From the NCBI RefSeq assembly GCF_054482525.1, contig NZ_CM137006.1: a stretch of DNA of 64,000 nt, one strand, 5' to 3'. The notes beneath the pieces were generated by a model that did not search any database, was not told the DNA's origin, and saw nothing but the letters and a program-made list of their open reading frames with translations. Position numbers and translations under genes: made by a program. Each line of letters begins with the position of its first letter. The stretch's first letter is position 1. Shown piece by piece: positions 16,812-55,617 of the stretch.

Positions 16812-18452
16812 TCACACCGTAGCGAAACTAACTTGTTCACCCGCTCCGCGAGGTTCTGCCAACACAGAATGTTTGTTCAGACGGAATACGTCCACCGCCT
16901 CAGTTAATCGTGCCGCCTGTTCTTCAAGGGACACCGCCGCCGCTGAGGCCTCTTCTACCAGAGAAGCATTCTGTTGCGTCACCTTATCCATTTCAGAAAT
17001 CGCCTGGCTAACCTGAGTTATGCCTCTGCTTTGTTCATCCGAGGCAGCGGCGATTTCCTGCATGATATGTGTGACACTCGCGACGGCATCAACAATAGTG
17101 CTCATGGTTTTCCCTGCCATTGCCACCTCATCCGACCCCAGGTCAATTAACCTGACTGATTCACTGATCAAGCCTTCAATCTCTTTCGCCGCCTGAGCGC
17201 TGCGGCTTGCGAGTGTCCGTACTTCGCTGGCGACAACGGCAAATCCACGCCCTTGCTCACCCGCTCGCGCGGCTTCAACGGCAGCATTCAGTGCCAGAAT
17301 ATTCGTCTGGAAAGCAATACTGTTGATGACGGAAGTGATCTCGGAAATTTTCTTCGAACTCGTGGAGATAGCGCCCATCGTTTTTACTACACCGGAAACC
17401 GTCTGCCCGCCATCGCTGGCTTTAATAGAAGCCTCCTGCGCCAGTTTGCTGGCATGATGCGCGTTATCCGCATTCTGTTTCACCGTCGCAGTGAGTTGCT
17501 CCATGCTGGCGGCAGTTTGTTCAATTGCCGCCGCTTGTTCTTCGGTGCGAGATGACAGGTCCGCATTGCCAGCTGAAATTTCGCTGGTGCCACGATAAAT
17601 CTCTTCCGCACCCTGTCGAACAGTCCCTACTGTCGTCCCCAGTGAATGCTGCATTTGCTGTAAATGACGACTTAAGCGACCGATTTCATTACGACCCGCC
17701 GGTTCATCATTCATCGTCAGATCGCCACTGGCGATTTTTTCAATCCGTTGTGCGGCATGTTGCAGTGGACGAATGACGATCCGACGTAGCACTATAAATG
17801 TTATCAGCGTCATGACCAGGGCAAGCACAAACGCGCCAATCATGAACATCCCACCCAGGCGGGTGCGCTGATGGGCCAGTTCCGCCAGTTGGTTGGCTCT
17901 GGTGCTACGTATCTTAACGGCTTTGCTCAAAATATCGGTATAAGCATTATCCAGCGGTCGGATCTGCTCACTTTCATGATTGATAATCGCTTCAAACATG
18001 CCATTTTTGGCATATTTCAACATAGGTTGCATACCCGTGATATAAGCCTGGAAGCGTTGATTTAATTCAGTGTCGAGGGCTTCATCAGCAGGTGTTTTCA
18101 CCGACCGATTCTGATAAGCACGATAACCTTGCTGCGACTGTTTAATCTCCGATTCGGCTTGCGCAATATTTCGCTTCATTGCCTCCATTTCCGCAATACG
18201 ACTCGCAGCCCCGGCCTGAATCATATTGATCCGGGCTGAACGCAAAAAATCTGAACTGTTCGCTAACCCGGTCCGAATCTCAATCTCCGCAGTAACATCC
18301 CGCTGATCGCGATCGGCCTGCCAAAGGAAATAGCCGGCCAGGGCTGAACTTAATGCGAATAGAACTAAGATACCGCCAAGAATGCAGGCAAATAACGGAA
18401 CCAGCCTGATGTGATGCAAAAAACCTAATCGCTGTGAGGGAGTTGTATTCAT
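16812..18452 (-). CDS. trg: Methyl-accepting chemotaxis protein III (ribose/galactose transducer)
   Basis: 546-aa ORF with two TM segments, HAMP region and conserved MCP signalling domain. Confidence 0.95.
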
Positions 18453-18491
18453 TACCGTTGTCTCTCTTCCAGGTTTACTCCTGATAGAAAG

Positions 18492-18518
18492 TCATCGGCA
18501 CTTGACGGTAATTACTTA
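18492..18518 (-). promoter_or_regulatory. Candidate sigma-28 (FliA) promoter for trg
   Basis: On the trg strand: TAAGTAAT-N11-GCCGATGA against consensus TAAAGTTT-N11-GCCGATAA; -10 matches 7/8, -35 is weak; about 40-65 nt upstream of the trg ATG. Confidence 0.4.
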
Positions 18519-18744
18519 CGACCAAAAACCTCTTTGCGTCACATTTTTACAACAATTATGGCAGAGAAGAATAATGCCATTGGAATGAAGAGAGTAACGA
18601 ATGATTAAACTGGCTAAACCGAATGACGAAAAATTCTGGAAAACAGCACGCAATTTCGTCAGGTGATTATTTTCGTCCCTAAGGAAACCACATAGGATGC
18701 TCACGGGTGCCTGAGACTTTCTGTTTTCAGGCTAACCGGGAATC

Positions 18745-18810
18745 AGAAAGACGAAGGCCCCGACCGATATTTCTATCAACCGAGGCCAACGAATGAACCA
18801 AGCAATTCAG
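18745..18810 (-). ncRNA. sokB: SokB antisense RNA; approximate placement
   Basis: Placed by analogy with hok/sok architecture (Sok lies antisense to the hok leader / mok start). Ends not determined from sequence. Confidence 0.3.
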
Positions 18811-18850
18811 ATGTTAGCCTCTTACCCGCCATCCGGCAAGGAAAAAGGCT

Positions 18851-19000
<150 letters not shown>

Positions 19001-19071
19001 GGGCAAGCGCGGGGATTTTCCCCGCGCATCTGACTAGCGGATTCATTTTCTCATGGCACCCCTTTTACACT

Positions 19072-19245
19072 TCAGTTAGTGCATGTTTTTTTCGATGCAC
19101 TAATAGAACCATCATTACAGACAAATTTGCCGCCTGCCGTACAGTGTGAGACCCCCCCTTTCGAACCAGAACAGGGTTTGCGCCCGGCATCGGCATAAAA
19201 GGAAGCAAGCGCTCCCATAACCAAGATAAGTGCCAATTTTTTCAT
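19072..19245 (-). CDS. ydcA: Small secreted cysteine-rich protein
   Basis: Hand translation: MKKLALILVMGALASFYADAGRKPCSGSKGGVSHCTAGGKFVCNDGSISASKKTCTN (57 aa). Confidence 0.8.
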   Translation of the reverse strand: MKKLALILVMGALASFYADAGRKPCSGSKGGVSHCTAGGKFVCNDGSISASKKTCTN

Positions 19246-20208: not shown

Positions 20209-21210
20209 ATGAGTAAAGTTGGTATTAACGGTTTTGGTCGTATCGGTCGACTGGTGTTGCGTCGATTACTTGAAGTCAAAAGCAACATAGACATTGTTGC
20301 TATTAATGATCTCACTTCCCCAAAAATTCTCGCCTACCTGCTGAAACATGATTCAAACTACGGACCGTTCCCCTGGAGCGTTGATTTTACGGAAGATTCA
20401 CTTATCGTTGATGGAAAAAGTATCGCGGTTTACGCCGAAAAAGAGGCTAAAAATATTCCATGGAAAGCGAAAGGCGCAGAAATCATTGTCGAATGTACTG
20501 GCTTTTATACCTCCGCCGAGAAATCGCAGGCGCACCTTGATGCTGGTGCGAAGAAGGTGTTGATTTCCGCCCCTGCCGGTGAAATGAAAACCATCGTTTA
20601 TAACGTCAATGACGACACACTGGATGGCAACGACACCATTGTTTCCGTGGCGTCATGCACCACTAACTGCCTTGCGCCGATGGCCAAAGCCTTGCATGAC
20701 AGTTTCGGGATAGAAGTCGGCACGATGACGACCATTCATGCCTATACCGGCACTCAGTCACTGGTGGATGGCCCGCGTGGTAAAGATCTACGCGCTTCAC
20801 GTGCAGCGGCAGAAAATATCATTCCCCACACTACAGGTGCGGCAAAAGCCATTGGTCTGGTGATCCCAGAACTGAGCGGCAAACTGAAAGGTCATGCGCA
20901 ACGCGTACCCGTGAAAACCGGTTCGGTGACTGAACTGGTGTCTATTCTTGGAAAAAAAGTGACTGCCGAAGAAGTGAACAACGCGCTTAAAAAGGCGACA
21001 AACAATAACGAGTCATTTGGTTATACCGATGAAGAAATAGTCTCTTCTGATATCATAGGCAGCCATTTCGGGTCGGTGTTTGATGCCACGCAAACCGAAA
21101 TTACCGCCGTGGGCGATTTACAACTGGTGAAAACGGTCGCCTGGTACGATAACGAATATGGCTTCGTCACGCAGCTTATTCGCACCCTCGAAAAATTCGC
21201 TAAACTCTGA
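20209..21210 (+). CDS. gapC: Glyceraldehyde-3-phosphate dehydrogenase C, intact reading frame
   Basis: Uninterrupted 333-aa [26 protein letters not shown]... with catalytic motif [10 protein letters not shown]. Confidence 0.9.
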
Positions 21211-28053: not shown

Positions 28054-28668
<615 letters not shown>

Positions 28669-50644: not shown

Positions 50645-52918
50645 ATGGGAAGCCCCTCTCTGTATTCTGCCCGTAAAACAGCCGTGGCGTTGGCAGTCGC
50701 CTTAAGTTTCGCCTGGCAAGCGCCGGTATTTGCCCACGGTGGCGAAGCGCATATGGTGCCAATGGATGAAACGCTTAAAGAATTTGGTGCCGATGTGCAG
50801 TGGGACGACTACGCCCAGATCTTTACCCTGATTAAAGATGGCGCGTACGTGAAAGTGAAACCGGGTGCGCAAACAGCAATTGTTAATGGTCAGCCTCTGG
50901 CACTGCAAGTACCGGTAGTGATGAAAGACAATAAAGCCTGGGTTTCTGACACCTTTATTAACGATGTTTTCCAGTCCGGGCTGGATCAAACCTTTCAGGT
51001 AGAAAAGCGCCCTCACCCACTTAATGCGCTAACTGCGGACGAAATTAAACAGGCCGTTGAAATTGTTAAAGCTTCCGCGGACTTCAAACCCAATACCCGT
51101 TTTACTGAGATTTCCCTGCTACCGCCAGATAAAGAAGCTGTCTGGGCGTTTGCGCTGGAAAACAAACCGGTTGACCAGCCACGCAAAGCCGACGTCATTA
51201 TGCTCGACGGCAAACATATCATCGAAGCGGTGGTGGATCTGCAAAACAACAAACTGCTCTCCTGGCAACCCATTAAAGACGCCCACGGTATGGTGTTGCT
51301 GGATGATTTCGCCAGTGTGCAGAACATTATTAACAACAGTGAAGAATTTGCCGCTGCCGTGAAGAAGCGCGGTATTACTGATGCGAAGAAAGTGATTACC
51401 ACGCCGCTGACCGTAGGTTATTTCGATGGTAAAGATGGCCTGAAACAAAATGCCCGGTTGCTCAAAGTCATCAGCTATCTTGATGTCGGTGATGGCAACT
51501 ACTGGGCACATCCCATCGAAAACCTGGTGGCGGTCGTTGACTTAGAACAGAAAAAAATCGTTAAGATTGAAGAAGGTCCGGTAGTTCCGGTGCCAATGAC
51601 CGCACGCCCATTTGATGGCCGTGACCGCGTTGCTCCGGCAGTTAAACCTATGCAAATCATCGAGCCTGAAGGTAAAAATTACACCATTACTGGCGATATG
51701 ATTCACTGGCGTAACTGGGATTTTCACCTCAGCATGAACTCTCGCGTCGGGCCGATGATCTCCACCGTGACTTATAACGACAATGGCACCAAACGCAAAG
51801 TCATGTACGAAGGTTCTCTCGGCGGCATGATTGTGCCTTACGGTGATCCTGATATTGGCTGGTACTTTAAAGCGTATCTGGACTCTGGTGACTACGGTAT
51901 GGGCACGCTAACCTCACCAATTGCTCGTGGTAAAGATGCACCGTCTAACGCAGTGCTCCTTAATGAAACCATCGCCGACTACACTGGCGTGCCGATTGAG
52001 ATCCCTCGCGCTATCGCGGTATTTGAACGTTATGCCGGGCCGGAGTATAAGCATCAGGAAATGGGCCAGCCCAACGTCAGTACCGAACGCCGGGAGTTAG
52101 TGGTGCGCTGGATCAGTACAGTGGGTAACTATGACTACATTTTTGACTGGATCTTCCATGAAAACGGCACTATTGGCATTGATGCCGGTGCTACGGGCAT
52201 CGAAGCGGTGAAAGGTGTTAAAGCGAAAACCATGCACGATGAGACGGCGAAAGATGACACGCGCTACGGCACGCTTATCGATCACAATATCGTGGGTACT
52301 ACACACCAGCATATTTATAATTTCCGCCTCGATCTGGATGTAGATGGCGAGAATAACAGCCTGGTGGCGATGGACCCAGTGGTAAAACCGAATACTGCCG
52401 GTGGCCCACGCACCAGTACCATGCAAGTTAATCAGTACAACATCGGCAATGAACAGGATGCCGCGCAGAAGTTTGATCCGGGCACGATTCGTCTGTTGAG
52501 TAACCTGAACAAAGAGAATCGCATGGGCAATCCGGTTTCCTATCAAATTATTCCTTATGCAGGTGGTACTCACCCGGTAGCAAAAGGTGCCCAGTTCGCG
52601 CCGGACGAGTGGATCTATCATCGTTTAAGCTTTATGGACAAGCAGCTCTGGGTAACGCGTTATCATCCTGGCGAGCGTTTCCCGGAAGGCAAATATCCAA
52701 ACCGTTCTACTCATGACACCGGTCTTGGACAATACAGTAAAGATAACGAGTCGCTGGACAACACCGACGCCGTTGTCTGGATGACCACCGGCACCACACA
52801 TGTGGCCCGTGCCGAAGAGTGGCCGATTATGCCGACCGAATGGGTACATACCCTGCTGAAACCATGGAACTTCTTTGACGAAACGCCAACGCTTGGGGCG
52901 ATAAAGAAAGATAAGTGA
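50645..52918 (+). CDS. tynA: Periplasmic copper/topaquinone primary-amine oxidase
   Basis: 757-aa form from ATG 50645 with signal peptide MGSPSLYSARKTAVALAVALSFAWQAPVFA; track ORF starts 12 codons upstream. Confidence 0.95.
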   Translation: MGSPSLYSARKTAVALAVALSFAWQAPVFAHGGEAHMVPMDETLKEFGADVQWDDYAQIFTLIKDGAYVKVKPGAQTAIVNGQPLALQVPVVMKDNKAWVSDTFINDVFQSGLDQTFQVEKRPHPLNALTADEIKQAVEIVKASADFKPNTRFTEISLLPPDKEAVWAFALENKPVDQPRKADVIMLDGKHIIEAVVDLQNNKLLSWQPIKDAHGMVLLDDFASVQNIINNSEEFAAAVKKRGITDAKKVITTPLTVGYFDGKDGLKQNARLLKVISYLDVGDGNYWAHPIENLVAVVDLEQKKIVKIEEGPVVPVPMTARPFDGRDRVAPAVKPMQIIEPEGKNYTITGDMIHWRNWDFHLSMNSRVGPMISTVTYNDNGTKRKVMYEGSLGGMIVPYGDPDIGWYFKAYLDSGDYGMGTLTSPIARGKDAPSNAVLLNETIADYTGVPIEIPRAIAVFERYAGPEYKHQEMGQPNVSTERRELVVRWISTVGNYDYIFDWIFHENGTIGIDAGATGIEAVKGVKAKTMHDETAKDDTRYGTLIDHNIVGTTHQHIYNFRLDLDVDGENNSLVAMDPVVKPNTAGGPRTSTMQVNQYNIGNEQDAAQKFDPGTIRLLSNLNKENRMGNPVSYQIIPYAGGTHPVAKGAQFAPDEWIYHRLSFMDKQLWVTRYHPGERFPEGKYPNRSTHDTGLGQYSKDNESLDNTDAVVWMTTGTTHVARAEEWPIMPTEWVHTLLKPWNFFDETPTLGAIKKDK

Positions 52919-54711: not shown

Positions 54712-55617
54712 ATGAACCCCGCAGTGGATAATGAGTTTCAGCAATGGCTTTCCCAAATCAATCAGGTATGCGGAAATTTTACCGGGCGCCTGCTGACTGA
54801 GCGTTACACGGGTGTACTGGATACGCATTTTGCCAAAGGACTAAAGCTGAGTACCGTGACAACCAACGGGGTGAATTTATCCCGCACCTGGCAGGAAGTA
54901 AAAGGCAGCGACGATGCCTGGTTTTACACCGTTTTTCAGCTTAGTGGTCAGGCAATAATGGAGCAGGATGAGCGTCAGGTGCAGATTGGCGCTGGCGATA
55001 TTACGTTACTCGATGCCTCACGCCCCTGTTCGCTTTACTGGCAGGAGTCTTCTAAACAGATTTCATTACTTTTACCACGCACTCTGCTGGAACAATATTT
55101 TCCCCATCAAAAACCTGTCTGCGCAGAAAGACTGGACGCTGACTTACCTATGGTGCAACTCAGTCATCGCCTGTTGCAGGAGAGCATGAATAACCCGGCA
55201 CTTTCTGAAACAGAAAGTGAAGCTGCGCTACAGGCGATGGTGTGTCTGCTTCGCCCGGTACTTCATCAGCGGGAATCTGTTCAACCTCGGCGTGAACGTC
55301 AGTTTCAAAAAGTGGTTACGTTGATAGACGATAATATTCGCGAAGAGATATTACGCCCGGAGTGGATAGCCGGAGAGACAGGTATGTCAGTACGTAGTTT
55401 GTACCGAATGTTTGCCGATAAAGGTTTGGTGGTCGCGCAATATATTCGTAACCGTCGTCTCGATTTTTGTGCTGATGCGATTCGCCATGCCGCAGATGAT
55501 GAAAAACTGGCAGGCATTGGCTTTCATTGGGGATTTTCCGACCAGAGTCATTTTTCAACGGTATTTAAGCAACGCTTTGGGATGACGCCAGGCGAGTATC
55601 GCCGTAAATTCCGCTAA
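54712..55617 (+). CDS. feaR: AraC-family activator of tynA/feaB
   Basis: 301-aa ORF with C-terminal AraC-type HTH (...GFSDQSHFSTVFKQRFGMTPGEYRRKFR). Confidence 0.9.
   Translation: MNPAVDNEFQQWLSQINQVCGNFTGRLLTERYTGVLDTHFAKGLKLSTVTTNGVNLSRTWQEVKGSDDAWFYTVFQLSGQAIMEQDERQVQIGAGDITLLDASRPCSLYWQESSKQISLLLPRTLLEQYFPHQKPVCAERLDADLPMVQLSHRLLQESMNNPALSETESEAALQAMVCLLRPVLHQRESVQPRRERQFQKVVTLIDDNIREEILRPEWIAGETGMSVRSLYRMFADKGLVVAQYIRNRRLDFCADAIRHAADDEKLAGIGFHWGFSDQSHFSTVFKQRFGMTPGEYRRKFR

Follow-up and report, generated by a model that had tools for sequence, protein, structure and literature searches.

Which promoter drives trg in this strain, and can a sigma-28 promoter with a poor -35 element be recognized from sequence and gene context? 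The question is raised by an interval directly upstream of trg, in which the original prediction had placed a promoter read by FliA (sigma-28). Our analysis of the whole stretch of DNA that contains it (64,000 nucleotides, hereafter the window) indicates that this feature is almost certainly a class 3 flagellar promoter of trg, read by FliA and assisted by CRP, the transfer of this description from K-12 to the present strain being the part that we infer.

Regarding the gene itself, the window is E. coli DNA and the reading frame at 16812..18452 (minus strand), whose ATG lies at 18452, encodes Trg, the ribose/galactose methyl-accepting chemotaxis protein (546 aa). With 98% identity to K-12 Trg and matches to the methyl-accepting chemotaxis protein families, it is the chemoreceptor gene that had been proposed, and PGAP calls the identical sequence Trg in strain PCN033. 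The truncated Trg-like protein Tls of phylogroup B2 was considered as the identity of 16812..18452 and rejected, the gene being full-length Trg. Moreover, the neighbours of trg are those found in K-12, i.e., ydcI downstream and hokB/mokB/sokB, ydcA and cybB upstream. Next to cybB, at 20209..21210 on the plus strand, the window carries an intact gap open reading frame of 333 aa, for which the annotation gives a type I glyceraldehyde-3-phosphate dehydrogenase; in K-12, the counterpart gapC is a pseudogene. An 801-nt stretch around the promoter is 100% identical to that of E. coli PCN033 and of two other strains and is matched in 5,416 of 5,426 complete E. coli genomes.

Upstream of the ATG, the following features, all on the minus strand, can be delineated:

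18525..18546, minus strand: CRP binding site, the 22-mer AAATGTGACGCAAAGAGGTTTT, agreeing with the consensus at 13 of 22 positions, with a perfect left half (TGTGA) and a poor right half.
18519..18524, minus strand: linker TGGTCG between the CRP 22-mer and the -35 element.
18511..18518, minus strand: sigma-28 -35 element TAAGTAAT, matching the published trg FliA motif and keeping the leading TAA.
18500..18510, minus strand: 11-nt spacer TACCGTCAAGT, of the sigma-28 consensus length.
18492..18499, minus strand: sigma-28 -10 element GCCGATGA.
18484..18491, minus strand: segment CTTTCTAT between the -10 element and the start.
18483..18486, minus strand: probable start region as mapped from published data, with the C of RegulonDB trgp1 at 18483 and the equivalent of the aer primer-extension start at 18486.
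18453..18483, minus strand: 5' untranslated leader of trg, 31 nt, CAGGAGTAAACCTGGAAGAGAGACAACGGTA, from the published start and the ATG.
18453..18482, minus strand: the leader after the start C, AGGAGTAAACCTGGAAGAGAGACAACGGTA.

The -10 element, the 11-bp spacer and the -35-like octamer named in the original prediction were thus all found as described, at 18518..18492 (minus strand). The -10 element agrees with the consensus GCCGATAA at 7 of 8 positions and supplies 10.2 of the 14.8 bits that the site scores on a FliA weight matrix; the -35 element, with 4 of 8 positions of TAAAGTTT, supplies 4.2 bits and is as poor as had been stated. The TAA triplet of the -35 element is present and includes T1 and A3, which are essential at aer, and the octamers stand 11 nt apart, as they do in the orthologues. 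The CRP site lies a few bases beyond the upstream end of the flagged interval, and CRP dependence is the one omission of the earlier description.

A trg promoter that depends on FliA and is activated by CRP is already described in the literature and recorded in RegulonDB. Indeed, the motif obtained for trg by FliA ChIP-seq in K-12 is TAAGTAATTACCGTCAAGTGCCGATGAC, with a fold-above-threshold score of 23 (Fitzgerald et al., 2014; PMC4183435, Table 2), and the 28-mer of the window is identical to it at every letter. In the same study, trg RNA fell significantly, from 108 in motile MG1655 to 4 in the fliA deletion, i.e., 27-fold, and its Table S3 reproduces the RegulonDB promoter trgp1, whose start C lies 8 nt past the -10 octamer and whose evidence codes are HIPP and HTTIM (PMC4183435). 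It has also been demonstrated that a trg100::lacZ fusion needs sigma-28 and is activated by CRP (crp-plus versus crp-minus backgrounds), that CRP gel-shifts the trg100 fragment and that trg and aer have equal distances between the CRP site and the promoter (Hollands et al., 2010; PMC2859248). The elements proposed upstream of trg are hence the very ones of the published FliA motif, of trgp1 and of the sigma-28-dependent lacZ fusion. As for Salmonella, bioRxiv 2020.09.09.289983 holds no FliA data on trg, trg appearing there in a strain genotype only.

With the MG1655 record as the K-12 reference, the window shows two base differences over 98 nt (18550 to 18453). One, at 18519, is a single base upstream of the -35 element (G on the minus strand in the window, A in K-12), and the other, at 18467, is located in the leader (A in the window, C in K-12). 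Neither falls inside the -35 element, the spacer, the -10 element or the CRP 22-mer, all of which are the same in K-12, as are the distance to the ATG and the downstream gene. The core elements on which K-12 work has established the binding of FliA and of CRP, the need for fliA and the activation by CRP are identical in the window, and the same behaviour is to be expected in this strain. Five complete E. coli genomes contain the 71-mer exactly as it stands in the window, with its rare G allele at 18519; of the 4,056 genomes having the region, 3,241 carry the K-12 version. About 1,370 of the 5,426 complete genomes are without the trg promoter region, an absence consistent with the phylogroup B2 deletion in which mokB and the 5' portion of trg are lost and the Tls regulator is created (PMC12623472).

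How far the sequence alone speaks for a promoter depends on the scale at which it is considered. The octamer GCCGATGA has six copies in the window, where 2.7 would be expected, and is thus uninformative as evidence on its own, while the bipartite pattern TAA-N16-GCCGATNA has a single occurrence, at the trg promoter, against 0.16 expected. On a weight matrix made from 51 FliA ChIP-seq motifs (Fitzgerald et al., 2014), trg being left out, the site ranks third among the 127,946 positions of the window. Matches as good as this one are expected about 0.61 times per simulated 64-kb window and about 7e-4 times per 150-nt upstream region read on one strand. The trg site is therefore modest as a sequence and unexceptional window-wide, and its position directly before a chemoreceptor gene is far beyond chance. 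Its score falls among those of the bound sites of aer (15.7 bits), fliC (15.4) and fliL (15.1). Two other sites of the window score higher, namely CAAATTTCACATCAGTAATGCCGATAAA at the very start of hrpA, in sense orientation (28549..28576, minus strand; 15.4 bits), and a FliA-like match in the feaR-feaB intergenic region, pointing to feaR (55308..55335, plus strand; 15.3 bits); a further FliA-like match is located inside tynA (51673..51700, plus strand; 13.6 bits). None of these three is among the 52 published K-12 FliA ChIP-seq motifs and, since the hrpA and feaR-feaB sites score as well as trg, the matrix score alone cannot predict function.

It could be argued that the resemblance to a sigma-28 promoter is fortuitous and that trg is read from another promoter, such as a sigma-70 promoter elsewhere in the 295 nt that separate the ATG from the sokB terminator, a view to which the third rank of the site, the 0.6 or so equally good matches expected per 64 kb and the -35 match of only 4 of 8 lend some support. 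Against it, the FliA ChIP-seq peak of K-12 lies on the exact 28-mer and trg RNA is 27-fold lower without fliA; a search of the trg strand (minus) over 18400..19100 showed no sigma-70-like promoter; and, from genus to genus, the -10 and -35 elements are kept at a constant distance from each other, whereas the sequence of the spacer drifts. We consequently hold a chance resemblance to be very improbable.

Another possibility is that trg is mainly transcribed by read-through from cybB, ydcA and sokB, which share its orientation, with the sigma-28 site making a minor contribution. However, a terminator-like hairpin followed by a T-run is present at the annotated 3' end of sokB (18787..18756, minus strand), and the trg RNA left in the fliA deletion amounts to only ~4%, so that dominant read-through has scarcely any probability. 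Taken together, the lack of a sigma-70-like promoter in the region searched, the hairpin and the ~4% of residual RNA make both explanations very unlikely, and the FliA-read, CRP-assisted promoter, against which no observation speaks, is the reading that we retain.

By K-12 homology, the sokB antisense RNA is placed at 18747..18803 (minus strand), with the hairpin and T-run between sokB and the trg promoter, and its position is overlapped by mokB (18793..18960, plus strand) and hokB. A sigma-70-like promoter, TTTACA-18-AATAAT (10 of 12 positions), lies at 18546..18575 on the plus strand, facing mokB/hokB and away from trg, and its -35 element abuts the trg CRP site. It could be the promoter of the hokB mRNA.

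The conservation of the trg promoter was followed beyond E. coli by scanning species-representative genomes, which gave 80 loci of Trg orthologues from about 25 genera of Enterobacteriaceae, including Escherichia, Citrobacter, Enterobacter, Lelliottia, Leclercia, Kosakonia, Kluyvera, Phytobacter, Trabulsiella, Cedecea, Buttiauxella, Pluralibacter, Siccibacter, Mangrovibacter, Pantoea and others, and 78 distinct promoter sequences. The alignment was anchored on GCCGAT, the looser G[CT]CGAT catching in many loci a GTCGAT near the ribosome-binding site. In 79 of the 80 loci, a GCCGAT lies upstream of the gene at a distance of at most 140 nt, the sole exception (locus L053) carrying GTCGATAA. Among the 78 distinct promoters, the full octamer GCCGATGA is present in 60, the TAA at the -35 offset in 66 and a TGTGA upstream of the -35 element in 68. 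With the -10 element as anchor, a column carries on average 1.84 bits of information in the -10 octamer and 1.62 in the -35 TAA, compared with 0.48 in the far upstream flank and 0.33 in the spacer. A drifting spacer framed by conserved elements whose distances stay constant is the footprint to be expected when a bipartite promoter and its activator site are functional. An AAGAGAG motif before the trg ATG is likewise kept across genera.

The distance from TGTGA to the -35 element (18542..18518 in the window) is 25 nt in Escherichia, as at aer, and 26 nt in 54 promoters of other genera. This shift of 1 bp deserves mention because activation by CRP is position-sensitive at aer.

The conserved positions include one that departs from the consensus. 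Indeed, the G at position 7 of the -10 element (18493 in the window) is kept in 74 of the 78 distinct promoters and is more conserved than position 8. With a non-consensus G, a weak -35 element and a CRP half-site all being kept, the promoter may be selected as sub-optimal. Selection may thus hold it below the consensus and thereby keep trg CRP-dependent, and the rare G at 18519, which by position falls in the stretch occupied at aer by the alpha subunit of the polymerase, could tune this dependence in the present strain. We put forward these two proposals tentatively, as possibilities that we consider rather doubtful.

As to how the promoter would operate, FliA RNA polymerase would recognize the -10 element GCCGATGA and the weak -35 element TAAGTAAT across the 11-nt spacer, and transcription would begin about 6 to 8 nt past the -10 element, at 18486..18483 (minus strand), leaving a leader of ~31 nt. 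Because the -35 element is poor and the -10 element has one mismatch, the promoter would also rely on cAMP-CRP which, bound to AAATGTGACGCAAAGAGGTTTT (18546..18525), probably recruits or stabilizes the FliA holoenzyme in an arrangement similar to that of aer. By this analogy, we infer that CRP touches RNA polymerase at trg in the way demonstrated at aer. In the flagellar cascade, FlhDC comes before FliA, with FlgM acting as anti-sigma factor, and trg would be expressed only when FliA has been freed from FlgM by this cascade and catabolite repression is lifted.

The position of the start deserves some caution. The RegulonDB start at 18483 exceeds the usual sigma-28 distance from the -10 element by 2 to 3 nt, and the CRP site is centred at -52.5 from this start or at -49.5 from the aer-equivalent start at 18486. 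Either the high-throughput mapping may be a few bases off, or the start of trg may be located slightly further downstream.

Beyond correct annotation, the importance of these results is small. They illustrate that a real but weak sigma-28 promoter is recognizable from the sequence and the gene context alone, and what they add to the published work is the cross-genus footprint of the -10 element, including its non-consensus G, of the -35 TAA and of the CRP half-site.

Among known systems, a close counterpart of the trg promoter, besides that of K-12 trg itself, is the promoter of aer, another gene of the chemoreceptor family; it too is a weak sigma-28 promoter, has 11 nt between its octamers and responds to activation by CRP. 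The elements are TAAAGATA and GCCGACAT at aer and TAAGTAAT and GCCGATGA at trg and, measured on the RegulonDB strings, both promoters have 25 nt from the CRP half-site (TGTGA at trg, TGCGA at aer) to the -35 element and 19 nt from the -35 to the -10 element. At aer, where CRP is centred at -49.5, changes at -35 T1 or A3, or in the CGA of the -10 element, abolish activity; trg keeps all of these bases, its CGA being at 18497..18495. The two promoters differ in their recorded start, which is 3 nt further from the -10 element at trg. Regarding the canonical class 3 promoters, of the TAAAGTTT-N11-GCCGATAA type, those of tar, motA, flgM, fliC and tsr are FliA-bound and fliA-dependent like trg, but lie between 20 and 27 bits on the matrix, where trg has 14.8; fliC, with 15.4, is the exception. 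Moreover, no CRP binding was observed at fliC/fliD, flgMN, flgKL, motA and tar, unlike at trg, and at tsr CRP binds without a direct effect on expression (Hollands et al., 2010; PMC2859248).
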